Source: a virus. Taken from it: DNA of 64,000 nucleotides. The DNA lies in the IMG/VR virus record IMGVR_UViG_3300027714_000001, positions 32,001 through 96,000 of that record, one strand, 5' to 3'. Made by a program: the position numbers and the translations under genes. Below are positions 9,231 through 56,215 of this stretch, piece after piece. Every line of letters begins with the position of its first letter. Position 1 is the stretch's first letter. Under the pieces are notes generated by a model that saw only the letters and a list, made by a program, of their open reading frames with translations, was not told the DNA's origin and ran no database searches.

Positions 9231-9575
9231 AAATCGCATCGTATTGAATTAATTTATTAAGGAAATATGTATGTCAAGAACAATCAGAAGAAAAAACGTA
9301 GCTTTTTGGTGGAATAAACAAGAATACCTACAAAGCCATGAGCATGACTGGTCTTATGGTAGCATTTACTGTAAGACAGAACAAGACTATAATACAGAAA
9401 CTCGTGTATTTTATAGTGATAAATGTAACCCTGCCCCGCACAGTAAAAATGTTAAACATGCGGAAAATAGTAAGCGTAGAGCAGCGGAAACTAGAAAACT
9501 AAAATCTTACAGAGGTTTTGGGTGGATAGAGTTCGAAAAGCTCTATGACGATAGATGGAACTGGGATTAAACAAT

Positions 9576-9661
9576 GGAAGATGATCTAGTCTGGGACTAG
9601 CGCCGCTTGCTAAGCGAACGGAGCCGAAAGGCTTGGGGATCAATACCTCCTTCTTCCTCCA
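9576..9661 (+). tRNA. tRNA-Ser(GCT)
   Basis: CGC-TT-GCT-AA-GCG, long variable arm, CCA. Confidence 0.85.
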
Positions 9662-10456
9662 AATTAAGGTAATAACATGTACGGACTATATAAAACTACA
9701 ACAGTAATGGACTACGAAGGGGACATTGATTCCTACAAAACTTTACTAGCTGTAGCCCCTAGTTCCTCAGAACTAGTGGAGCGTTGGGACAAAAAATGCG
9801 AAAAAGAGTTAAAAGCAGTAAGTGAGTTACACAAAAGCTATGCAGATAACGTACCTCCTAAGTTCCTGAAAGGACAAAAAAGCCTTGAGTATTTAGGAAA
9901 TACTGGTGGGGGATATAGTTACGTAAAAATTATTGTTACTATTGAACAAATAAAACAGTGGGACAAATAATGTTTACTGCCTCATATGACTTTGAGATAC
10001 AGCAGTTTTTTATATACTATAACCACGGATTAGTGGGGTATTTTGATCCCAAACAAAAACCCAAGTACATAGACTTTTGCGATATATATCTACCTTTACA
10101 TTTAAGTAAACTTCATCTCAAACAACTAGAAAAAATTCTAGATTTAAAAGGGTCAACAGAATAAAACAGGGAACTTATAAAGTAAGTGGCACAATCGTAC
10201 ATGATACTCCTAAACTTGTGGTTTTTATGATGAAACACCTTAACCCACCTGCTTACTCTCACAGACTAGTTAGGTACGAGGAACTAAGAGATCATTATAT
10301 TTTTAAAGTAGAATCCGAACTATTTGAGCTAAGAGAAGATGTTCCTATGTACCTAGTATATTTTAACGTAAACGGGGTTGTTTCCGTAGAAATTGTTTGA
10401 CAGATTGCCCAAATAAGCGTATAATAGCTTTATTGAATTGATAAAAGGCTAATAAA

Positions 10457-25515: not shown

Positions 25516-25590
25516 ACTCCTGTAGCTTAACGGCAAAGCGCAGGCTTCTAAACCCTAGAAATGGGAGTTCAACTCTCCCCAGGAGTACCA
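25516..25590 (+). tRNA. tRNA with apparent CTA (amber) anticodon and weak anticodon stem
   Basis: ACTCCTG/CAGGAGT acceptor plus ACCA, canonical D and T arms, CAGGC-TT-CTA-AA-CCCTA. Confidence 0.65.
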
Positions 25591-42964: not shown

Positions 42965-43675
42965 ATGAGCCAAGAAAGAGTAGAAGAAATTAAACGTATA
43001 CAGGCAGAGCTGGAGCTAGAACTAGCCTCTTACACTCCTGTGTCAACCGAGATATTAACCCCCATCATTAATAGAAAATATGTTCTGAATAATAAGTGGA
43101 ACTACGACTTACTGGAGAAAGATTTCCACAAGCTAAACGGTAGGTACATTCCACTAGATGCGATAAAGAAAATCACTAAACGTTTACGTATCAATAGACT
43201 GCCGCAGCTAGACGTACCAATTAAAGAACTACAACTGCTAAATCCACTAGGACTAGAAGATGTATTTAAAACGATTAAAGGTTGCTGGTATTACAACACT
43301 GAAATTCCTGCTAGACAGTTAGCAATGCATTTGTTCTTAGGAAAAAAGAATGTTCTAGAAGAAGGACAATCATGTACTAGGTGGTTTCCAAAGAATACAT
43401 TGAGAGAAGTTATAAATATTGATAGAGACCCGCTACCATTTTCTGATACAAACCTCAATATTAATGGGATGCCTGACCTAGATACTAGCTTTCCGTGCGA
43501 ACCTACACAGGAATGTTTAGATATTTTAAAGACAGGACTAGGCAAGAGACACTTAGTAACAGCTTCAAACTATTACAACTACGACCTCATACAATTAGAG
43601 CTTTTTATCCAAACGGGGATTAACTACAGGCCATCTGTCAAGGAGTTACAACCCAAACACTTGATCGGCATTTAA
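42965..43675 (+). CDS. Hypothetical protein, last gene of the rightward early block
   Basis: 236-aa ORF in phage codon style. Confidence 0.6.
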   Translation: MSQERVEEIKRIQAELELELASYTPVSTEILTPIINRKYVLNNKWNYDLLEKDFHKLNGRYIPLDAIKKITKRLRINRLPQLDVPIKELQLLNPLGLEDVFKTIKGCWYYNTEIPARQLAMHLFLGKKNVLEEGQSCTRWFPKNTLREVINIDRDPLPFSDTNLNINGMPDLDTSFPCEPTQECLDILKTGLGKRHLVTASNYYNYDLIQLELFIQTGINYRPSVKELQPKHLIGI

Positions 43676-44169
43676 AAGATTATTTGACAGTAGGATTTTC
43701 CTATGCTATAATTACAAGGTAATCTTAAGAGAGACTAGAGAGAATCTTTAGAATCTCTACTACCTCCGCAAGATTTGACAGAGCTTAAGGTCTAGGATAT
43801 ACACCTCCCGATACCATACGGGAAGGGGGTGTTTATACGCAGACTAACTTTAGCTTCTTCAAATCTAAAACAAACAACAAATCATTAACAGCCACAGCTA
43901 TATCTACCAACAAATATAACAACTAATATCTACACAAGAGGGGACTTTTAACGCTATAGAACCCACTCGAACGGTATGAACAACCAATGTCGTATAGAGC
44001 TTCGAGAACCCCTTCACCATAATACTAGCCTACACTAGTCCACACCAGACTACACCAATATCGTCCTAGACCAGAGTAGAACAACACAAGACTACACCAG
44101 CCCGCTAATGTCCCCAAGAGAGACTGCGGGCTTTTTTGTGTCTAAAATTTAATACCTCTAGTCAAAACT

Positions 44170-44284
44170 GTCATAATTGTTCGCTAATGTCCAAAAGCAG
44201 TCAGAATTGCAGTCATAATTGTTCGCTAATGTCCAAAAGCAGTCAGAATTGCAGTCATAATTGTTCGCTAATGTCCAAAAGCAG
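44170..44284. repeat. 42-bp tandem repeat (~2.7 copies) containing GTTCGCTAATGTCC
   Basis: Unit GTCATAATTGTTCGCTAATGTCCAAAAGCAGTCAGAATTGCA. Confidence 0.95.
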
Positions 44285-44426
44285 GGGCCGACCCCATCGG
44301 AATAGACAACCCCGTCAGCTCAGAACGGGCTAGGGCGCAGGAGAGCTTCTAACGGGACATTAGCGGTCTGCCCCGAGTCTAACACCAGATTAGCCGTGGT
44401 TACACCGAAATAAACTTTAAATAGCG

Positions 44427-44455
44427 TTGACAAACCGCTTGCGCTCATGTATAAT
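44427..44455 (+). promoter_or_regulatory. Consensus sigma70 promoter with no credible downstream ORF
   Basis: TTGACA-17-TATAAT; a second TTGACA-18-TATACT lies at 44583-44612. Confidence 0.8.
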
Positions 44456-44636
44456 AGTATGATAAAGTGGGAAAGCTTATGCCAAAATTCGCCGCAGCGG
44501 GGGGTAACATTATCACTACCCGCACCTAGTCTGCACCTACCACACAGTCCCGCCCCGTCCCGCAGAAAAACTAAAAAATCACTTGACAAGCAACGTCTCG
44601 GTAAGGTATACTAGGCGCGAGTCTAATATAAGTACT

Positions 44637-44800
44637 AACGTAACATAAGTACTACCTCGCGGGCGCAACAACGTAACATAAGTACTACCTCGCGGGCGCA
44701 ACAACGTAACATAAGTACTACCTCGCGGGCGCAACAACGTAACATAAGTACTACCTCGCGGGCGCAACAACGTAACATAAGTACTACCTCGCAGGCGCAA
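44637..44800. repeat. 33-bp tandem repeat, 5 copies
   Basis: Unit AACGTAACATAAGTACTACCTCGCGGGCGCAAC. Confidence 0.97.
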
Positions 44801-44976
44801 ACAGGGGTGAACCCCTTTTGACCAATCTAAACTGATCAAAATTTGACTGGACCGACCAGTCAAATAAAGCTTGACACGAGAACGCTGCGCGCAGCTTCCA
44901 TGCCACTTTGTCAAGCTTTTTATTTAATTTTAAGCAAAAAAAAGCCATGCCAATGTGGCACAGCTTTTGCTAGAGC

Positions 44977-45339
44977 TTACAGCTCAGTAGCGACTGACAA
45001 AGCAGCGAGAGCTTCGTTCAAGCGGTCTAGGTCAGCTTTGCTGGCCTTCTCTAAAGAATCCAACTCGCCTTCCTTAAGGCTAAGAAAAATTTCAGCAGCC
45101 CGCACTAGCGAGATTTTGCGAGTGCCAGTTTTTGAGGTTACAGAAACTTTGACGTTAGGCTCATACAAACCTTCGCTTACTAGTTTACCGCGAACCATAG
45201 GAATGGTCTTGCCCAAACCTTTTGCGATGCTAGACAAGGCATCGTTTTCGCCTTTGTATTCGCTTTTAAGAGTAGCGATTTGCGCAGGAGTCCAAGATAC
45301 AGATTTTACAGCAGATTTTACAGTTTTTGCATTAGACAT
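44977..45339 (-). CDS. T5 A2-like DNA-binding / DNA-transfer protein
   Basis: W.......IA...G......VR.KL.....Y......RK...VR......L.SLE.A pattern of T5 A2; tandem duplicated promoter upstream (45379-45536). Confidence 0.75.
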   Translation of the reverse strand: MSNAKTVKSAVKSVSWTPAQIATLKSEYKGENDALSSIAKGLGKTIPMVRGKLVSEGLYEPNVKVSVTSKTGTRKISLVRAAEIFLSLKEGELDSLEKASKADLDRLNEALAALSVATEL

Positions 45340-45625
45340 TTACGTCTCCTTTAGTAATGCGGATTTGGGATTATTCCCGATTTCTTAAGACTATTATAAC
45401 AATTTTTAGTCTTTGAGTCGAGCTTTTATTTAATTATTTTTTAAACTAAATTTCCAGCTTGTCCTGATTTCTTAAGACTATTATAACAATTTTTAGTCTT
45501 TGAGTCAAGCCTTTATTTAATTATTTTTTAAACTAATTTCACAAACCTTCCCAACTCAAGACAAGTATTATCTCACAATGTTAGCTTGCTGTCCAGCTTT
45601 ATTTCAAAATAAGGTGAAAATAAAG

Positions 45626-45642
45626 TTGGCACGGGTCTTGCT
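45626..45642 (+). promoter_or_regulatory. sigma54 -24/-12 consensus site
   Basis: TTGGCAC-GGGTC-TTGCT; IHF consensus AATCAATGACTTA at ~45680. Confidence 0.55.
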
Positions 45643-47069
45643 AGGAAAATAGGGGGTTGACTTTTAAAAACTCCTTTAAAATCAATGACTTACGCCGCTT
45701 CGCCGCGCGCGGCTGCGACCCCCTTTTGTCAAGTTTTATTTTTCAAATTTTAAATAATTTGCTCATACTTAATCCCTAACACTAGCCATAAAATCAGAGC
45801 AATCATCCGCGTTAAAATTTCCATCTTCGTCTATGTCTTCCGATTCAATCCAGCCTGAATCAGTTTGTAAAAGACCATGTGATTCTGCAAAATCCTGCTC
45901 GTATTTTTCCATCGCAATGTCTTCCGCTTGGTTCTCGTCTTCCGCTTCGACTTCGTAATGTTCACTGTACCCACACCAGTCTACAGCGTAAATTTCTACT
46001 ATGAATTTTTTCATCGGTTTAGCTCCTTAAACATTAATTGTCTTATTGTTTCGCACGTAGCGTCACTTGCTAAAATAGAAATATTTTTAAAAGTCTTACC
46101 ATCCCTTCGAAGTTCTGCGCCTAGCTCCTTAGCTATATACTGAGAATCAGCAAACTTTAAAACAGGCATTGCCATACAATGCAACGAACGTTGACGAAAA
46201 AGGCCGCCCCCTTTTGTTAGCGTGATCTCTCCGTCTTCCCAAATTTCTTGTACCATCCCAACATTTTCCATAGTTGGGGCGGCTTTAAATGCTTCGATTA
46301 TTTTTAAAATGCTCATTTTTGTAGTTCCTTAAGTAGGTCTTCTAGTTCTGAAATTTGGTCTTGTCTGTCTCCAAGCTCTGATACTATATTATCATATTCT
46401 TCATGACAATGCTCTATTTCTTTGATAAGTTTTGCTATTTTTAAGGCTCTTGCAGGGTCAAAATTTAAGTCTACTGTTTTTACTCGTAAAACAGTAACAG
46501 ATTTATACGTATCTGGAATCTGTTCTAGGGTTTCAAAGTATTCTACTACTTCAATACACCCACCAGAGTAGTTGTCTCCAACTACTTTAGAACTTACTAC
46601 CTTATAAAGTTTACTCATCATTTTTCTTCCTAGTTATTCAATACAAGTATTATCTCATAAATAAGCTACGTTGTCTAATACCGTTTTAGTATATGCTTAT
46701 GCATTTTTAGTCTTGACAGGCGTTCCGCCGCGCGCGGCTGCGACCCCCTTTTGTCAAGTTTTATTTTTCAAATATTTTTTCATCCCCTTTTAAGTCCTTT
46801 TTTTTGTTTTTTAAAAATAATTACTGCTTGCTTTCTATAAAATTCCTTAGTCTCTGTGCAATTATTTTCATTATACCCTTCATCTACTAAGTTTTTAAAA
46901 TTTCTTAACATGCTTTTAATATTCTCCAATAGCTAAAATTAAATTCTTTTTTGTCGGTATATTTGTTTGACTTTTTGCAAAATTTCTTTGCTTCTTTTTC
47001 TGTCTCACAATAGCCGACAATATCCACAATTCCAAACTTATCTGTAATTTCTACAATATACATATTATA

Positions 47070-47336
47070 TCACCATATAAAAAATAAAACAACTAAATTC
47101 GATGTAATGCCTATTATGCTAGAAACGATATGAAGTTTGCATTTTCTAGTAATTGCGTCAACTAAGTAACAACATAAAGCAGTTATTAACAAAACTATAC
47201 TAGCTATAGGCATAGAAACACCTGTTTTTATTGAAACTATTACATTAGGAATATTCATCATTTGCATTAGGCCGAAGCCTACCCAAGGAATATAAGCAAG
47301 CATTGCTTGCTTATATTTATTAAATCTATTTTCCAT
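47070..47336 (-). CDS. Small 3-TM membrane protein (possibly PQ-loop/SemiSWEET-like)
   Basis: Three hydrophobic helices, 'NIPNVIVSIKTG'. Confidence 0.4.
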   Translation of the reverse strand: MENRFNKYKQAMLAYIPWVGFGLMQMMNIPNVIVSIKTGVSMPIASIVLLITALCCYLVDAITRKCKLHIVSSIIGITSNLVVLFFIW

Positions 47337-48091
47337 TATAAAAACTTTACCTCGTTCAAAGTTACATTTTTACCTAGACGAATTTTGTCTTTGATTTTTT
47401 TTAATTTTTCTTCGTTTAAAATAATTTCTTCTTTGTCTTGGATAAGTCTCCAAGGGTGAGAAATAATACCGTAGTTAATTTTCTTACCTAGACCAAGCAA
47501 TCGGACTAAAAGCTCTTTTTCAATTAGTGCATCATCTAAAGCGGTATGCGACTCTTGAAATTCCCAATCCCCAATGCCGTATTTATAAGCAACTTCGGCA
47601 TTAGTTTTATAGTTACCCGCAGGTGAAACATGACCCATTAACTTACACCACTTTTTAAAAGTACGTTGCTGTAGTAATGTCTCGCAAGATACACGCCACA
47701 AATCAAGTTGCTCTCTTTTGCCTATAGCCATAAAGCCACCATATTTACGACCTGTATTACTAATGACCCTAGAATCAAAAGCTAAATTATAAGCGCAAAT
47801 AGTAGTGACACCATGATTTTTCATTAGCTTGTTTACGTCATGGCAAATTACAGCCCAGCTTTTTACGTCCATACGGTTGCATCGGATATTTGGCTTGTAA
47901 AAGCTATCGACTTTTTTAAAGTAAAAGGCTTTTTTCATCATCTGGACATTTTCAAAAACTTCCTTTATAATGGAATCATATCTTGCAAGCTCTTTGCCTT
48001 CTTTGTCACAAATTACCATACCAAAATCAAAAACTTCACCCGTCAAAGTTGCGGTTTCTGTGTCGATTACTGCGTATATTCTTTTAGTCAT
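47336..48091 (-). CDS. DEDDh 3'-5' exonuclease
   Basis: VIDTET, AYNLAFD, ESHTALDDA motifs. Confidence 0.88.
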   Translation of the reverse strand: MTKRIYAVIDTETATLTGEVFDFGMVICDKEGKELARYDSIIKEVFENVQMMKKAFYFKKVDSFYKPNIRCNRMDVKSWAVICHDVNKLMKNHGVTTICAYNLAFDSRVISNTGRKYGGFMAIGKREQLDLWRVSCETLLQQRTFKKWCKLMGHVSPAGNYKTNAEVAYKYGIGDWEFQESHTALDDALIEKELLVRLLGLGKKINYGIISHPWRLIQDKEEIILNEEKLKKIKDKIRLGKNVTLNEVKFL

Positions 48092-48782
48092 TTTTTAATT
48101 CTCTATCTAAGTAAGTGCTAATTATAGCTTTTTTGGTGGTTTGTGTCAAGTGTTTATTTAAGCTATTTTATAAATAAATTCTCTTTGCTCTCCCCATCCA
48201 ACACAAGTATTATCTCATACCCTTTCAACATTGTCAACCCTTTATTTTATTTTGTTTTAAATTTAATTTAAAACTAACTCTGTACCGATTCAACACAAGT
48301 ATTATCTCATAAATACGTTGGGTTGTCAAAGACCGTTTTGGTATAGCTTTGCTTGTTTTTATACCAAAACGGTCTTGACAGGCGTTCCGCCGCGCGCGGC
48401 TCCTGCGGCCCTGTCAAGTTTTTATTAAAAATAAAATTCTTTCTAGTGTGTCTATTTCGCCCGCTATGTAAGCTAATCTGTACGCTTTTTGTCGGGTGTT
48501 TTCTCTCTCATTAGTTACTAGTTTATGCGTGTTTCTTGCGATTTTTAGCTCTTTTTCTATTATTTGTTTTGGCAACATCTTTTTTCTCCTTTTTGTGAAA
48601 TTTTAAATAGCATTCGTATACGCTTAAATATTCTTCGGCTTCCTGATTTACATAGTTTTTACCTTCAAGATAGACGCAAACGGATGCCTCTTGCTTGTAT
48701 GTTTCCCAATAATTGGCAACGGCTTCAAGGCTAGTAAATACACCATGAACTTCTAGATACTCTAGTGCAACATAAATCATTA

Positions 48783-49295
48783 TTAATGACCCTCAAAAGG
48801 TACGTTTATAGATTGCATACCGATTTTAATAACGGCTTTGCAGTTTGCTAAATTATCATCAATCAAAACCATTTTTTCCAATTGGCGAAAATCAAAACGG
48901 CTAATTAAGTGTGTAGTTTTTAAGTGGTAATCTCTGCGAGAATCATTTTCACCACATCGCGCCATAATTGATTTAGGCTTTACGTTATTATTAGCTAACC
49001 AAGCTTTTGTGTTATCACACATTACGCGAGCTGTACATATATGAAAATCAACTCCCGCTTCCTGTAGTAAGTGAATTGCCTTAATTAATGGTAAAGCTTT
49101 ATCTTTTGATACATGTTCGGCGGTTGACATTTCGCGGTACTTGTCAAGGTTTAATGAACCGTCTTTGTTGCAAATCTGTCTATGACTTGCATCGGCAAAA
49201 ACTCCGTCCATATCAAAAACAGGAACTTTTTTCGCCATGATTAGGGTAGCGGCTAATTGAGTTGCTGACTTTTTGTTATTTTGTAGTGTAAACAT
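48783..49295 (-). CDS. HAD phosphatase (dmp/PNKP-like)
   Basis: VFDMDGV, CTAR, K, IDDN motifs; pre-early location like T5 dmp. Confidence 0.75.
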   Translation of the reverse strand: MFTLQNNKKSATQLAATLIMAKKVPVFDMDGVFADASHRQICNKDGSLNLDKYREMSTAEHVSKDKALPLIKAIHLLQEAGVDFHICTARVMCDNTKAWLANNNVKPKSIMARCGENDSRRDYHLKTTHLISRFDFRQLEKMVLIDDNLANCKAVIKIGMQSINVPFEGH

Positions 49296-49848
49296 ATTTT
49301 TTATTCTCTTTATTAATTCAGTGTAAGTATTATATCGCGTTTGGCGGGTGGAGTCAACCTTTTATTCAATAAAATTATCAATAAAATCATCGGCATCTTC
49401 TATGCTTTTAAAGTTAGCTATGACTTCGTCTTTTTCGTTTATAACTTCGTAGATTCCGTTGTTCAAAAATTTATACATTTAAAGTTTTCCTAGTTATTCA
49501 ATACAAGTATTATCTCATAAAAGTATCGTGTTGTCCACCGCTATTTTAGTATATGGCATACTAAAAAGTTATTTGACAAAAACCGGAAAGCCGCGCGCAG
49601 CGTTGCCGCCCCTGTCAACCTTTATTTTAAATATATTCCCAGATATATTTAGACTCAAAATATTCTTCGGTTTCCACACAATTTTTAGTATTGCAATAGT
49701 GGTCTGCATCTTGCCATTTTTCAAAAGTCAAGAACTCATTTTCTCGCTCAATTACTTCGTTGCGGCTTAAGGTTAATAAACTTACCCGTACCATATTAAA
49801 TTCTCCAAAAAAAAAAAAAAGCCCGAGGCGAACGCCCCGAGCATATTA

Positions 49849-50172
49849 TTAAGCTTCTACCAGAGCCTGCACAGCATCTAGGATGGTTTCAAGATCAGAT
49901 TTTGATGCCTTCTCAAAGCTGGTAACTTCTTCAACACCTAGCAAGTCAGAGATTGCTTGCACTAGGGTGATTTTACGAACCGCCCTGCTAACGCTAGGGG
50001 ATGCGCTTTTTGCTTTAGCAACATAAACACCTTCGGCAACAAGCTTGCCACGTACTTGCGGGATAGTCTTGCCCATGTCTTTAGCGATAGTTGCAATTGC
50101 AACGCCTTCCTGATACTTAGCAGTCATAGCGGCAACAGATTCGGTAGTATAAGCGGTAGATTTAGTAGTCAT
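49849..50172 (-). CDS. Second A2-like paralog
   Basis: Shares IAK..GKTIP.VRGKLV.EG.Y, RKI.LV.A and S.EKASK.DL with 44977..45339. Confidence 0.75.
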   Translation of the reverse strand: MTTKSTAYTTESVAAMTAKYQEGVAIATIAKDMGKTIPQVRGKLVAEGVYVAKAKSASPSVSRAVRKITLVQAISDLLGVEEVTSFEKASKSDLETILDAVQALVEA

Positions 50173-50744
50173 ATTATTTTTACTCTCTTTAGTTATTTAG
50201 AACGTTTATTATAATTCAATTCGGTTGTTAAGTCAATCTTTATTTTAATTCTTTTTTGTAATCTTTTTAATTCGTTTCCCTGATTTCTTAAAGCTATTTT
50301 ACCATGTTTTATTGGTAGCTGTCAAGTGCATTTCGTAACTTTCTTTAATTTCTTTTCTAGCGGCTTGCTTAGAAAAGAAAGCTCGTAAACAAACTATTGC
50401 AGAAAAGCTAGGAATAACCACAATACAAGATAATAATTGAAAAACAGTCATTTCTAATCCTTGTTTTAAGATATACATTATATCACCATAAAGTCCTGTA
50501 GTCGAGTCTTTTAATAGATTAAAAATGCTTTTATGATAAATCGCCCTTGGCGAGTTTCCCTCTGGCGTAAAATTTGGGTTTAACAAAGCTTCGGCATATG
50601 CCTTATCTGTAAATTCTTTAAAAGTCATGGGGTTCTTCCTAGTTATTCAATACAAGTATTATCTCATAAAAGTATTGTGTGGTCTAATAACATTTTCGCA
50701 TAAGCTTAGATCAAAATGATCTTGACAGCGGCGGCGAGCCGCGC

Positions 50745-50816
50745 GCACCTAATATTTGCACCTAATATTTGCACCTAATATTTGCACCTAATATTTGCAC
50801 CTAATATTTGCACCTA
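50745..50816. repeat. 13-bp tandem repeat, 5.5 copies
   Basis: Unit GCACCTAATATTT. Confidence 0.97.
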
Positions 50817-51168
50817 TAAGTTTTGTACATAAGTAGTCCCAAACTCAAGAGGGATCTGCCCCGTCTTTTTGTTGATGAAATTTTGAACGATTGGCTGAAA
50901 ATCGAAATTCTTAGCAATGCTCTTATATACCCCCACATCGGTCAAATCTGCAAGCACGTTAGCCGCTACAAGCTCATTAAGTATTTTTAGACCCTTAGTT
51001 ACACTATCAACCTTAAACGTCTTAGAAGGCATCCTAGAGCTTGATTCTGAAAAAACCCGAATTGCTATTGTTGACATATGTTATACCCTTTAGTTATATT
51101 AAATTCATGCCCATTGGCACAATAAATCCTAAACGAGAATGGTTCTCGTTTAGGAGTGACCCACCTTT

Positions 51169-51639
51169 TTAGATACTTGTCAATAATTCATTTATCAATT
51201 TATTGATTCTATCAATGTCAAGGTCAATATTATTTAATTCAAATTTTTCTTGCTTTTTATTATATATCACTTGTAACGCTTTGTGTACCGTTTTTTCGTA
51301 TTTGCCATTTATTTCTTCAAGTTTCTTCGTAAGTTCTTTACGAGCTTTTGAGCAGCTTTCTAGCGCGTATTTATCTGCCAGATTATTAAATTCAACATCA
51401 TCCGTTATAACAAAAACAGTCACTAATGAGTCACTATCAACCAAAACGTTATAACGTCTTAGTGCTTGATATGGGTGAAAAGATTTACCCACTTTGCAAG
51501 CCCATTTTATGTTATTTTTGCCCAAAAAACTACCCACCGGCACTGAATATATGGTGTTAGCTAATTTGCCTATTTTGTGATCAGATTGGTGATTTTTTAG
51601 GCTTTTTTGGATTGCTCGTATTTTCATCGTTTTTCTCAT
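51169..51639 (-). CDS. Hypothetical protein downstream of a sigma54-type promoter
   Basis: 156-aa ORF with a C-terminal coiled coil. Confidence 0.6.
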   Translation of the reverse strand: MRKTMKIRAIQKSLKNHQSDHKIGKLANTIYSVPVGSFLGKNNIKWACKVGKSFHPYQALRRYNVLVDSDSLVTVFVITDDVEFNNLADKYALESCSKARKELTKKLEEINGKYEKTVHKALQVIYNKKQEKFELNNIDLDIDRINKLINELLTSI

Positions 51640-51666
51640 TTAATTGATTAGGTATTACCTATATAA

Positions 51667-51865
51667 TGCAACCTACGTGCCAAGTTGCAAAATAGGTAAG
51701 TCGTTGATTTATAAGGGTTTTTATATTCTAGCTAATTGAATAGTTGGCATGATGACATTTTATGCACCTGAATAGTGCAATGATTCCTGATTATAGTGCA
51801 CCACTTTGGTAAGTCGTTGATTTATAAGGGTTTTTAACCTTTTTGAGATGCACCAAAAACTGACA
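51667..51865 (-). promoter_or_regulatory. sigma54 promoter with IHF sites and NtrC-type enhancer sites
   Basis: TTGGCAC-GTAGG-TTGCA (51683-51667); AATCAACGACTTA (51709-51697 and 51822-51810); TGCAC-N7-GTGCA (51763-51779); TGCACCACTTTGGT (51797-51810). Confidence 0.75.
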
Positions 51866-51959
51866 TACCAAAAACACAAAAAACGTGTTAAGTCTAATAA
51901 CAAATTAATCAAAAAATAAACAAAAAAGTATTGGACATTTGAAAATCATAGCAAAAAAC

Positions 51960-52101
51960 TTATCCACAGGTTATCCACACACTTATACATCTGGGGATAA
52001 AAAGCGGCTTTTTAAAATGTCAACCTTTTATTTTAGCTCTCTCAGTGAGTTATACAGAACTTACCCACAGGGTTATCCACAGGCTGTTGGGTTGTGGGTA
52101 A
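51960..52101. promoter_or_regulatory. DnaA-box cluster
   Basis: TTATCCACA at 51960, 51971 and 52073; one-mismatch boxes at 51992(-), 52061 and 52093(-). Confidence 0.85.
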
Positions 52102-52213
52102 CCTGTTAGCAACAAAAAACCTCCAATATAAACGCCCTGTACGGTCGCTGGTGGCATTATCTCTTAGCAGTCTTATTGATACAAAGGGTAGGGCTAAACG
52201 CGCACACTAATCT

Positions 52214-52234
52214 AAATGATTACCATTCGCATTT
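52214..52234. promoter_or_regulatory. Fur-box-like site
   Basis: AAATGATTACCATTCGCATTT compared with AATGATAATCATTATCATT. Confidence 0.5.
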
Positions 52235-52729
52235 GGCGGCGCGGGCGCGATGCGGGCTGTAGAGCATCGCTACAGCCCGCGCCCTTAAAGGGCGGTAGAC
52301 TGCCCCAACAGCTTATACGTTATTTTCTCAACCCTATCTTCATGTATACCATATTGATCTAAATAGCTCTTTTGAGCGTCTACAAGTGTGTTGCCTTCAG
52401 CCGTTGCAACGTGCATTCTGCCACCAATTAAATTTGTTGTGAATTGATAAACTTTCATATTTTGCTACCTTTTAAAATTTTCTGGTTAAACCGAATTGTT
52501 TAACCAGACCTATATCCTACAGCGCTCGGGTACCTTAGTCAAGTAAATGTTTAAAGTTATTTCCAGATATGTCTGCTTTAGTTCTTAGGTAAACATTTTT
52601 ATTTGTGGTACTTTTACCTGCCTGTATATCTTTGCGGATATTTGACCAGTCAAATGCTACCACGTCAACGAAATATTCCGCCAATTCGATTTTTCCAGAT
52701 TCTAGTATTAGGTAGTAATTAGTTGCTTT

Positions 52730-53433
52730 CATTTTCTTTACTCTTTATTTATTCGATGAGGTATTATCTCAGGTTCTAATCTATTGTGCAAGTACAAATG
52801 TCAAAAAAGCGGATAAAAAACATAGTGTACTAAAAAAGTTTTGTTCGCCTTGTTTGTCCGAAGTAACACACATTATGCCAAAAACTATAGTAAATAATAA
52901 AGCAGTTATAAACATAATTTTAACCTTTACAAAATGCGGCAGATGCCTTAAATGTCATGTCATAATTTACAACCATATCCATCTCGCAAACCGCTCTCTG
53001 GTGAACTTCGATTCCGGATTTTCCCAATCCTAGTGAAGTACCAAAAACGGCAGCTATATACATAACAGATAAAAGTACTATGACCTGAGCGATTGACTTC
53101 ATTATTAGTGTTTTCATTTTCTTTACTCTTTATTTATTCGATGAGGTATTATTGCATTCTAATGCTAGATTGTAAAGGGTATTTTTGAATTTTCTTCCCA
53201 ATTATTATTAAGTTTTTTATTTTGGTTAAATCTATCAGAATCAAAATTAGCCGCAATGGTAATGTACTGGTGTTGGTGAAACGCGGTAGCAAAAAGACCC
53301 TTATCAAAACAGTCACGCAAAAACTCAAGACTTTCAAGTCTTGACAAATTACGGGTAGTGGTATTTTCGGTTTTTACTGCAAATTCGTTGTCATTCATTT
53401 TCTTTACTCTTTATTTATTCGATGAGGTATTAT
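52730..53433 (-). repeat. Three copies of a 38-bp -10/leader/RBS/ATG cassette heading small pre-early ORFs
   Basis: CATTTTCTTTACTCTTTATTTATTCGATGAGGTATTAT at 52730, 53115 and 53396. Confidence 0.9.
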
Positions 53434-53643
53434 TGCACGAAAAGGGTACCTTTGTGAAATACCGAATTGGAATAAGCACCTGCTTTTTAGTTATAAGCCG
53501 CGCGCAATGGGGGCTGCAGGGGTGCTCTGTAGGGCGGGCGCAATGGGGCCTGCAGAGCATGAAATTAAATGAAATAAAAGGTTGCTATTATCTGTCAATA
53601 CTGTATTATTACCTTACTGAAACAAAACGAACCGAGAAGAAAA

Positions 53644-53994
53644 ATGACCACATTCACTATCACAAGATTAACAGAGACACAAGCACGAATCATGCCACAA
53701 GGCAATCATTTATATTTATGTGAGACCCTGACAAAACTTGGCATGAATTTTGATGGCACCAAGTTCGGAAAGTGTAAAGCGAAAAACGGCCTATGGGAGC
53801 GTCTACGCTCCCATAGTACCAACTGCCCATTTGGTCTAATCATAGTCCTGACGTTCACTACAGAGGCTGCTATGTGTGCCGCTGAGAGCGCCTGTAAGAC
53901 TTCTCTACCAACCCTTGCTTGGAATAGCTCAGAACGAGAATATACTTCATTAACCCCTGAGAAGGCTTTACAAGCTCTATTACGTAACATCTAA
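53644..53994 (+). CDS. T5orf172/GIY-YIG-like protein
   Basis: HLYL...KFGK......ERL.......P..L.......AE pattern. Confidence 0.45.
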   Translation: MTTFTITRLTETQARIMPQGNHLYLCETLTKLGMNFDGTKFGKCKAKNGLWERLRSHSTNCPFGLIIVLTFTTEAAMCAAESACKTSLPTLAWNSSEREYTSLTPEKALQALLRNI

Positions 53995-54120
53995 TAGGGG
54001 CGGGGGGGGTTAGGAGACTGGTCTGACCAGTCCGACCCCCCAGACCCATTTCCAAACGCGATATAGGGTATTTTCAAAAAAGTGGAGAGGCGCGACAAAT
54101 ATCGGCTGAGGAGACCCTCA

Positions 54121-54350
54121 CTACGGTTCTCTGCGGGACATTAGCGAACGGGGTATACTATTTCTACTACGGTTCTCTGCGGGACATTAGCGAACGGGGT
54201 ATACTATTTCTACTACGGTTCTCTGCGGGACATTAGCGAACGGGGTATACTATTTCTACTACGGTTCTTTGCGGGACATTAGCGAACGGGGTATACTATT
54301 TCTACTACGGTTCTCTGTGGAACATTAGCGAACGGGGTATACTATTTCTA
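54121..54350. repeat. 46-bp tandem repeat, 5 copies, containing GGACATTAGCGAAC
   Basis: Unit CTACGGTTCTCTGCGGGACATTAGCGAACGGGGTATACTATTTCTA; an extra core copy lies at 54371. Confidence 0.97.
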
Positions 54351-54471
54351 CTTTGCAGTAGCCTGAGCCAGGACATTAGCGAACTGCAGGTAGTTTAACG
54401 AAGTTCGCTTAAAATTTTTACTTGACAGGATATTTCTGGAGATGTATAATGCAAGTATAGAGGAGAAATAC

Positions 54472-54936
54472 ATGGACAACGAAATAACCGTGATAAGCCC
54501 CGAGGGGTTGGAGATAGCACACTGTTATCTGCAAAATAATAGTGACTCGGTTAAGACTGCCGAATTACTTAATATAGACATTACAGAAGTCGACAGATAC
54601 TTGTGCAAGCGGGAAGTACGAGGATACATTGATAGACTATTTAACGAATCGGGCTTCCGAAATCGTGATAAGATGGCCAATGTTTGGGACGCAATCCTAG
54701 CAGCCAAGTTGGAAGAAATGGACGATACAGGTATGGGCTCGTCAAAAGATATTGTAGAGATAATGGAGAAGATTCATAAATTTAACCTAGACCAAATGAA
54801 TATGCAACTAAAAATACTAGAACTGGAGAAATCCAAGGAGCCCGCAGTGGTGGTCAATACGCAGAACAACTACGGTGGGGCAAATTATAACAGTTTAATG
54901 GAAAAGATATTAGCAGGTAAAAATGGAGATAAGTAG
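54472..54936 (+). CDS. terS: Terminase small subunit
   Basis: T5-like ISPEGLEIA..YL and SSKDI motifs; promoter and GAGGAG SD upstream; precedes terL. Confidence 0.85.
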   Translation: MDNEITVISPEGLEIAHCYLQNNSDSVKTAELLNIDITEVDRYLCKREVRGYIDRLFNESGFRNRDKMANVWDAILAAKLEEMDDTGMGSSKDIVEIMEKIHKFNLDQMNMQLKILELEKSKEPAVVVNTQNNYGGANYNSLMEKILAGKNGDK

Positions 54937-56215
54937 ACCGTACTTAAATTGTGAAAACATTATAGACTTCCCCGTAGCGGAGCGTTTTCTAAAGCTACCC
55001 GTTGAGAACTTCCTAGAACTAAAAGGCATAGAACCTATAGCGCCCCAGATTGGATTGATAAACGCTATAAACGACCCTATACATAGATTTGTAGTCGCCT
55101 GTCTATCTCGTAGAACAGGTAAGACATTCATATCTAACACTCTAGCGTTCTTGAAAGCTATGGAACCAAAGTCAAAAGTACTGATAGTATCGCCTAACTT
55201 CTCATTAACAAACATATCTTGGAATGAGCAGATAACTATGCTTAAAGATCACAACATTGAGATAGAGTCTAAGAACAAGGCCTTGCGTGAGATACACCTA
55301 ACAAATGGTTCTATGATAAAGTTTGGGTCATACAATAATCCAGATTCATTAGTAGGACATTCGTACGACTTGATACTAGTGGACGAAGCAGCCCTAGAGA
55401 ACAAAGGGGCAGATGTATTCAACGTACAGCTACAGCCTACTCTAGACAAAGCAAACTCTAAATGTATCTTCATAAGTACACCACGAGGTTTGAATTACTT
55501 TTATGACTTTTACATGCGAGGGTTTAGCGATGACTACCCTTCTTGGATAAGCATACATTCTACCTACCGTGACAACCCCAGAAGTGTTTCGAGTGTTATT
55601 GAAGAAGCTCGTAAGAGTATGAGTAAGGCTGAATTTAAGCAAGAGTACGAAGCAGACTTTGCAACGTTTGAAGGACAGATATACGAAGGGTTTGACGAGG
55701 ATAAGCATGTACGCGACCTTAGTGACATGGAGTTTCCTGAGCACAGATTTGAAGCTATAATGGGTATTGACCCCGGCTACAAGGACGATACAGGGGCTGT
55801 AATATTCCAATACGATATGGATGAAGACAAATTTTACTTAATGTGGGATTACCAAGAAAAAGAACGAAATACAGAGCAGCACGCACTAGAATTTTATAAC
55901 CGCATGGAAGGCTGGAATGTAGACATAGTGTTCTGCGACAGCGCGGCAGCCCAATTCAGGCAAGACTTAGCTTCCTTATACGACATTCCTAGCAACAAAG
56001 CTAACAAGAGTGTACTTGACGGACTAGGGTATGTACAAGCCTTGATAGACAACGACAAGCTAATAGTAGATATTAACTGTACTCATGTCATCATGATGCT
56101 CCTCAACTATCGTTGGGACCCTAACCCAATGCTTGCAAAACCCAAACCGAAGCACGATCAGTTCTCGCACGTTGCGGATGCCCTGAGATATGCACTATAC
56201 AGCTATACTCGTTAG
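54923..56215 (+). CDS. terL: Terminase large subunit
   Basis: SRRTGKT Walker A, LVDEAA Walker B, ISTPRG, GIDPG and HVADALRY nuclease motifs. Confidence 0.97.
   Translation: MEISRPYLNCENIIDFPVAERFLKLPVENFLELKGIEPIAPQIGLINAINDPIHRFVVACLSRRTGKTFISNTLAFLKAMEPKSKVLIVSPNFSLTNISWNEQITMLKDHNIEIESKNKALREIHLTNGSMIKFGSYNNPDSLVGHSYDLILVDEAALENKGADVFNVQLQPTLDKANSKCIFISTPRGLNYFYDFYMRGFSDDYPSWISIHSTYRDNPRSVSSVIEEARKSMSKAEFKQEYEADFATFEGQIYEGFDEDKHVRDLSDMEFPEHRFEAIMGIDPGYKDDTGAVIFQYDMDEDKFYLMWDYQEKERNTEQHALEFYNRMEGWNVDIVFCDSAAAQFRQDLASLYDIPSNKANKSVLDGLGYVQALIDNDKLIVDINCTHVIMMLLNYRWDPNPMLAKPKPKHDQFSHVADALRYALYSYTR

Follow-up and report, generated by a model that had tools for sequence, protein, structure and literature searches.

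How phages of the T5 type pause and control the first injected piece of their DNA has been a question for decades. The left terminal repeat of T5, which is its first-step-transfer (FST) region, is said, from the work of Heusterspreute in 1987 and Wang in 2005, to contain repeats and an injection stop signal. DnaA boxes are the only clue to a host factor found in the literature so far. A preprint (bioRxiv 10.1101/866236) describes pairs of DnaA boxes, repeats and palindromes in the injection-stop region of T5, and puts forward, as a proposal, a stop model based on DnaA; it mentions neither sigma-54 nor Vibrio phages. DnaA-box pairs are a known T5 hallmark. Here, we describe a block of DNA in an uncultured marine T5-like siphovirus, record IMGVR_UViG_3300027714_000001 (106,179 bp). 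The analysis covered a window of 64,000 nt, bases 32001–96000 of that record, and positions given below without a record name are those of the window. The large terminase subunit (TerL) of this phage is 55 % identical to the large terminases of Vibrio Demerecviridae. Flanking the block are, on one side, the plus-strand early genes, which end at 43675, and, on the other, the genes for the small and large terminase subunits (terS and terL) and the portal, which start at 54442. An earlier reading of the sequence (the original prediction) had taken the block to be putative first-injected DNA made up of an array of sites for host regulators and replication proteins, which could act as a sensor of host physiology, as a sponge for host regulators or as a ratchet that helps to pull in the DNA.

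Our preferred explanation, to which we assign a probability of about 60 %, is that the block is a pre-early module and probable terminal repeat that has its own promoters and terminators, together with a few host-protein motifs that tie its expression and the entering DNA to the host. In the gene-free DNA of the block, motifs for a FadR-type repressor and for the host's DnaA and sigma-54 RNA polymerase appear to be under selection and conserved in the lineage. These motifs are present and enriched, their geometry is exact and their position is conserved. The coordinates of the features discussed are listed in Table 1.

To measure enrichment, the count of each consensus in the 10.5-kb block was compared with that in the remaining 96 kb of the genome and with those in 1000 first-order Markov simulations. 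The sigma-54 −24/−12 element (TGGCAC-N5-TTGCW) was found three times in the block and not at all in the other 96 kb (simulated mean 0.011), and none of the 1000 simulations reached this count. Two of the three, at 45626 and 51667 in the original prediction, were recognized previously and are both perfect elements; the third, at 44956–44971, had been missed. Perfect DnaA boxes number three in the block and one in the rest of the genome (simulated mean 0.09 per 10.5 kb, count reached in 0 of 1000 simulations). They are part of a predicted cluster of six boxes in 140 bp that was found exactly as described, with boxes starting at 51960, 51971, 52061 and 52073 on the plus strand and 51992 and 52093 on the minus strand, three of them perfect and three with one mismatch. 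The IHF consensus is matched five times in the block and seven times in the rest of the genome (simulated mean 1.0), a count reached in 6 of 1000 simulations. Three of these five matches are copies of one 15-mer, and they are the three IHF sites (45680, 51697 and 51810) that had been predicted. Against this composition-matched background, which had been proposed as a check, DnaA, sigma-54 and, at 6/1000, IHF sites are enriched. The only Chi-type octamer in the genome (52147–52154, plus strand; chance in the block about 0.12) adjoins the DnaA cluster and is oriented for RecBCD entering from the terminase-side end, facing an end at ~54.2 kb.

The sigma-54 pattern was also searched for in the whole records of relatives, namely six Vibrio T5-like phages and one metagenomic contig. 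Eight elements were found in the metagenomic relative (L005), four each in VspSw_1 and phage X1, two in PG07, five in 70E37.1, eight in D260 and two per repeat copy in Chester. All of these are in the pre-early module, which in the cultured Vibrio phages places them 5–11 kb upstream of the terminase genes. No match was found in T5 or in Serratia phage Slocum, the only two enteric genomes checked, and the reversed pattern used as a control gave 0–1 matches. In six modules (59 kb), there were 30 matches at the N5 spacing, while spacings of N3, N4, N6 and N7 each gave 0–1, as did each swapped or duplicated order of the two blocks, and the geometry is therefore specific to sigma-54. On this pattern, sigma-54 elements appear to be characteristic of the family's marine branch.

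Position is conserved as well as geometry. In Chester, 70E37.1 and D260, a sense sigma-54 element lies 360–425 nt upstream of A2. A further element is shared by Chester, VspSw_1 and 70E37.1. It is located ~65 nt from a conserved DnaA box, in non-coding sequence of the inner edge, and is directed inwards, opposing the small-gene operon. The window has its two plus-strand sigma-54 sites at the equivalent end and in the same orientation. L005, which has a TerL that is 76 % identical and shares the Dmp, exonuclease, A2-family and plus-strand genes, has its eight elements in the 9 kb upstream of terS, together with a cluster of four DnaA boxes, and two NtrC-type dyads are directly upstream of three of the eight.

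Among the three elements in the window, only the one at 51667 has a sense gene downstream, and only this one is accompanied by a dyad and an IHF-consensus site, at about −115 and about −47, respectively. Textbook promoter architecture is confined to this 51.7-kb unit, which looks like a complete activator-dependent sigma-54 promoter for the 156 aa ORFan, a protein with no homologue but itself in 5.8 billion proteins. The 'NtrC-type' sites of the original prediction are ambiguous. The dyad at 51763–51779 has one mismatch. The tandem array at 50745–50816, read as NtrC half-sites, has a core (ATTTGCAC) that is common to the T5 and Chester repeats. Eight copies of the repeat with this core are found at the inner edge of the T5 repeat (L002 9753–10478) and seven copies just outside the Chester repeat, at its inner edge (L109 6085–6496). 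The array may represent a phage motif that occurs throughout the family and is bound by a protein of its own.

Two FadR/GntR-like palindromes had been reported, and both are present with the sequences given. Relative to the published 17-bp FadR consensus palindrome (PMC9329746), their 13-nt cores match at 13/13 and 12/13 positions, and the flanks differ. There are no further copies of the core in the whole genome. L005 has perfect cores at two places, and at both the −35 box of a promoter for an A2-family gene follows 11 nt downstream; no credible promoter was found at either palindrome in the window. FadR-operator palindromes were seen in this lineage only.

The remaining elements of the predicted array have other explanations. 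One of two Fur-like boxes (51131–51151) is an intrinsic terminator, a hairpin with a 13-bp stem and a U-rich tail directly after the stop codon of the gene at 51169–51639, and the other (52214–52234) has at least six mismatches to the 19-mer consensus. No match above background to the 19-bp or 7-1-7 Fur consensus was found in the block, and the consensus patterns for LuxO, CRP and Fis were not enriched there. A LexA-type box (two 4-nt arms, 8 nt apart) was not found in the module, and the only one in the genome is at about 31181. Perfect or near-perfect Fur-type 7-1-7 boxes are present in the untranslated pre-early repeat of T5 (L002 233 and 9554–9699) and VspSw_1 (L003 5892–6286), and Chester has a near-perfect LexA-type box (L108 286–305) beside the DnaA boxes at the repeat edge that has no counterpart in the module of the window.

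The AT-rich dyads, at 48329–48376, ~49545–49567 and 52484–52509, are true inverted repeats, but they are mostly terminators or parts of sigma-70 promoter cassettes rather than host-factor sites. Those at 48.33 and 49.55 kb belong to the upstream portions of cassettes from a single promoter family, and that at 52.48–52.51 kb is a hairpin with an 11-bp stem after a gene. The proviso that several palindromes could simply be terminators applies to the supposed Fur box at 51131–51151. Sigma-70-like promoter matches number 52 in the block compared to 32.6±5.3 in shuffles. The minus strand has sigma-70 promoter cassettes of three repeat families, with twelve copies altogether, and a dispersed GC-rich hairpin element is also present. 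As an array of host-protein sites, the block is left with the DnaA, sigma-54 and FadR-type motifs and, weakly, IHF, but not with Fur; the Fur sites and most of the dyads are not worth pursuing.

The block contains about 18–20 small minus-strand genes and one plus-strand gene, and about one-third of it is non-coding by the gene list made here. Its position, between the early and tRNA genes and the terminase genes, is where T5, VspSw_1 and Chester have the pre-early terminal repeat (in Chester, 8,006 bp, ending 84 bp past dmp). The T5 Dmp protein belongs to phrog_415, and the A2 proteins of T5 and Chester to phrog_1725, the same PHROG families as the corresponding genes of the block. A gene for the A1 DNA-transfer protein was not found in the complete genome, either by protein search or with phrog_1745, and the same search recovered both Chester copies. 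Because of its position, its Dmp- and A2-family genes and the depth steps at the bordering arrays (see below), the block is a T5-type pre-early module. Other searches gave little: megablast with the block as query gave no match among phage records, the exonuclease gene used as bait found no relatives in viral contigs, with tblastn giving only distant Enterococcus or gut phages, Pfam gave nothing useful for ten module proteins, and nothing in 43–55 kb exceeded the Rfam threshold.

Depth was available as per-contig values, as all seven public runs containing the stretch are kept as contigs, which cannot show genome ends. In run X2, depth was 9.65 and 11.5 outside the block and 17.9–23.3 inside (six contigs); in run X1, 33.6 and 43.2 outside and 50–83 inside (five of six contigs); in run X5, 8.5 and 10.4 outside and about 1.3× higher inside; and in run X7, 994 and 1265 outside and about 1.1× higher inside. 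Hence, in three of the four runs depth is about 1.3–2× higher inside the block, and the steps fall in the two bordering arrays. This is a hint, and only a hint, of a ~9.5-kb repeat that is present twice per virion genome and once in replicating DNA. The block is probably a single collapsed copy of a ~9.5-kb direct terminal repeat, extending from about 44.7 to 54.25 kb.

A 14-mer is found on both sides of the block, with five copies (three perfect) on the left at 44100–44370 and six copies (five perfect) on the right at 54136–54384. The copies are in opposite orientation on the two sides and within different tandem arrays, and the depth steps adjoin these arrays. Elsewhere in the genome, a near-copy is found only at ~29904, and in viral contigs there were single chance matches only, with no arrays. 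Three plus-strand sigma-70 promoters at 43684–43712, 44427–44455 and 44583–44612, matching 12, 12 and 11 of 12 positions, fire towards the pre-early genes, into repeat DNA that is free of open reading frames and has no Rfam match. At 45298, 46817 and 53579, the contigs of three independent marine studies diverge into different sequence, and as these places are shared across the studies, co-occurring strains appear to exchange pre-early gene cassettes. 'First-injected DNA' is a reasonable inference for the block, given a position like that in T5 and Chester, the Dmp- and A2-family genes and a depth step at both arrays, but A1 is missing and the physical ends are not visible in contigs.

Table 1. 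Coordinates of genes, motifs and repeats in the block and at its borders
Feature	Position	Strand	Remarks
42-bp ×2.7 tandem array	44170–44284		Outside left border; carries 14-mer in reverse orientation relative to right-hand array
33-bp ×5 tandem array	44637–44800		Contig depth rises; candidate left edge of terminal repeat
FadR-operator-type palindrome	44842–44864		Core 12/13; can also fold as 10-bp hairpin
Sigma-54 −24/−12 element, perfect	44956–44971	+	Overlaps terminator of A2-family gene, points against gene
A2-family DNA-binding protein gene, 120 aa	44977–45339	−	phrog_1725; 34 % identity to T5 A2, BLASTP E 1e-5
Sigma-54 −24/−12 element, perfect	45627–45642	+	Intergenic, convergent with minus-strand genes
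IHF-consensus match	45680–45692	+	15-mer present in three copies
DnaQ-like exonuclease gene, 251 aa	47336–48091	−	Duplicated in relative L005
Dmp-family HAD phosphatase gene, 170 aa	48783–49295	−	phrog_415, E 8e-19; tblastn match to dmp of T5 and VspSw_1
Second A2-family gene, 107 aa	49849–50172	−	phrog_1725
13-bp ×5.5 tandem array, ATTTGCAC core	50745–50816	+	Upstream of sigma-70 promoter
Intrinsic terminator hairpin of gene 51169–51639	51127–51155	−	13-bp stem, U-rich tail; originally read as a Fur box
ORFan gene, 156 aa	51169–51639	−	28 nt downstream of sigma-54 element 51667–51682
Sigma-54 −24/−12 element, perfect	51667–51682	−	Sense orientation
IHF-consensus match	51697–51709	−	Inside 29-bp direct repeat; centre about −47 from inferred start
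NtrC-type dyad, 1 mismatch	51763–51779		Centre about −115 from inferred start
IHF-consensus match	51810–51822		Second copy of 29-bp direct repeat
DnaA-box cluster	51960–52101		Two units, each of two direct boxes 2–3 bp apart and one inverted
116 aa gene	53644–53994	+	Conserved in L005
FadR-operator-type palindrome	54016–54032		Core 13/13; within −31.8 kcal/mol hairpin, 22 nt past stop codon
46-bp ×5.1 tandem array	54120–54352		Carries 14-mer; contig depth falls; candidate right (terS-side) edge
Small terminase subunit gene	54442–54936	+	Context
Large terminase subunit gene	54923–56215		Context

Outside the block, 20 tRNA genes are located at 10.8–27.2 kb. ARAGORN lists among these 20 phage tRNAs one with the anticodon CTA (amber-reading, labelled Pyl) at 25516–25590. 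The 524-bp 'direct terminal repeat' of the record sits in a tandemly repetitive coding region, probably a tail fibre gene, at the record ends and outside the window. It was rejected as a packaging repeat and is an assembly overlap within that repetitive region, so the contig is a circularised assembly and its ends are arbitrary.

If the polarity of T5 holds, the module would enter the cell from its terminase-side end. Most of the non-coding DNA is the expression machinery of the phage itself, made up of sigma-70 cassettes and hairpin terminators, and overlying it is a small set of motifs for proteins that the host cell already contains at the time of DNA entry. Host sigma-54 holoenzyme, DnaA, IHF and a FadR-type protein are the ones expected, from the motifs, to bind, and they would tie pre-early transcription and the entering DNA to the host. 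In the 51.7-kb unit, the dyad, the IHF-type site, the −24/−12 element and the 156 aa gene follow one another in the order predicted for an activator-dependent promoter. The two far-end plus-strand sigma-54 sites would either fire against the pre-early genes, producing antisense RNA, or merely hold stalled polymerase.

Several observations weigh against this explanation. Two of the three sigma-54 sites in the window face away from genes, one of them overlapping a terminator stem, and both FadR-type palindromes can fold as stable hairpins just downstream of genes. Neither a gene for a sigma-54 activator (PF00158) nor one for a GntR-family protein was found in the phage genome, and everything thus depends on the host. 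The depth step could be due in part to co-occurring mosaic strains. As A1 is absent and the DnaA cluster is about 2.1–2.3 kb from the terminase-side edge, T5-style two-step transfer is not to be assumed for this phage. In the relatives, several of the sigma-54 matches in which the −24 block ends in T coincide with opposite-strand start codons of paralogous small genes, and these matches may be by-products. The presence of the ATTTGCAC core in the T5 and Chester repeats means that a phage protein may be what binds there. In a rival explanation, the motifs would be host-site lookalikes, namely terminators, parts of promoter cassettes and operators to which phage proteins bind, for example the two A2-family DNA binders. 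One Fur call is indeed a terminator, several dyads are hairpins or cassette parts, the repeat with the ATTTGCAC core is common to the T5 and Chester repeat edges, and the FadR-type sites of L005 are in front of A2-family genes, where autoregulation is possible. Nevertheless, we consider this unlikely, as it does not account for the strict sigma-54 geometry (variable spacer sequence, fixed N5, 30 versus 0–1 matches) or for paired perfect DnaA boxes across the family, and the FadR-type cores of L005 are too short to be terminators.

A role in holding the DNA itself is a further possibility. Pre-existing host DnaA, sigma-54 polymerase and IHF might clamp the entering DNA as a nucleoprotein brake or anchor, leading to a T5-style pause or an end tether. 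This would fit with the DnaA-box pairs conserved in the injection-stop region of T5, and with the proximity of a sigma-54 element to the conserved DnaA box at the inner repeat edge in three of the Vibrio phages. We regard it as quite unlikely here, given that the DnaA cluster of the window is not at the distal edge, that there is no A1 gene to restart transfer and that the DnaA model is itself a hypothesis from a preprint. Improbable, too, is a decoy function, in which the amplified repeat would soak up host DnaA, sigma-54 holoenzyme and FadR, shutting down host replication initiation and the sigma-54 regulons. The sites are of the high-affinity type (perfect consensus) and clustered, several sigma-54 sites have no sense gene downstream, the terminal repeat would be present twice per genome if the depth hint is correct, and sigma-54 closed complexes are stable without an activator. 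However, this phage has only three sigma-54 sites, six DnaA boxes and two FadR sites, and the conserved placement of sites relative to genes and to each other is a better fit to a function in cis than to bulk titration.

A broader proposal, which we advance as doubtful, is that the first-entering repeat of marine T5-like phages is a docking platform for host sigma-54 polymerase (stalled in its closed complex), DnaA and IHF, joined in this lineage by FadR, whereby the nitrogen, lipid and replication state of the host would gate pre-early expression or hold the entering DNA before any phage protein is made. Literature searches turned up no direct description of sigma-54 elements for T5-like or Vibrio phages. 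In a Salmonella screen, rpoN, glnLG and himAD were among the host factors of a T5-like phage (PMC8744999), an effect that the authors explain indirectly, via RpoS and glutamine. In eight marine T5-like genomes, the sigma-54 geometry is found in the pre-early module alone, and T5 and Slocum lack it, which points to a second host factor, one that is genetically testable. If true, this would be an unusual use of an enhancer-dependent sigma factor by a virulent phage.

Among known systems, gammaproteobacterial fad and fab FadR operators share with the window the 13-nt core of the 17-bp palindrome (13/13 twice in L005), but the flanks differ and the window sites do not overlie a promoter; they adjoin the repeat edges, downstream of genes. 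In common with the datA and DARS loci, which are chromosomal DnaA-box clusters acting away from the origin, the window has consensus DnaA boxes in a tight group, with IHF-consensus sites at a distance of 140–260 bp, in a non-coding region outside the replication origin; the box arrangement in the window is different, it is on a virulent phage, and the likeness is one of sites alone, not of DnaA-ATP hydrolysis or reactivation. Compared to glnAp2 and other NtrC-type promoters, the 51.7-kb unit has the perfect −24/−12 element, the dyad at about −115, an IHF-consensus site between them and a gene 28 nt downstream. It differs in having only one clear dyad, with one mismatch, in a phage that lacks an activator gene, and the other two elements of the window are antisense or convergent, one inside a terminator. 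The closest system is the T5 FST region. Unlike T5, the window phage has no A1, its module genes are nearly all on one strand rather than in two divergent blocks, it has one DnaA cluster, not at the distal edge, where T5 has two that are mirrored, and it has sigma-54 elements and FadR-type palindromes where T5 has none; the Fur-like and LexA-like boxes of T5, VspSw_1 or Chester are absent from its module. Both regions adjoin the small terminase gene, are in the ~8–10 kb size class, contain many small, separately promoted genes that include Dmp- and A2-family members, and have large untranslated stretches with repeats, palindromes and DnaA boxes paired 2–3 bp apart, as well as a repeat with the ATTTGCAC core.

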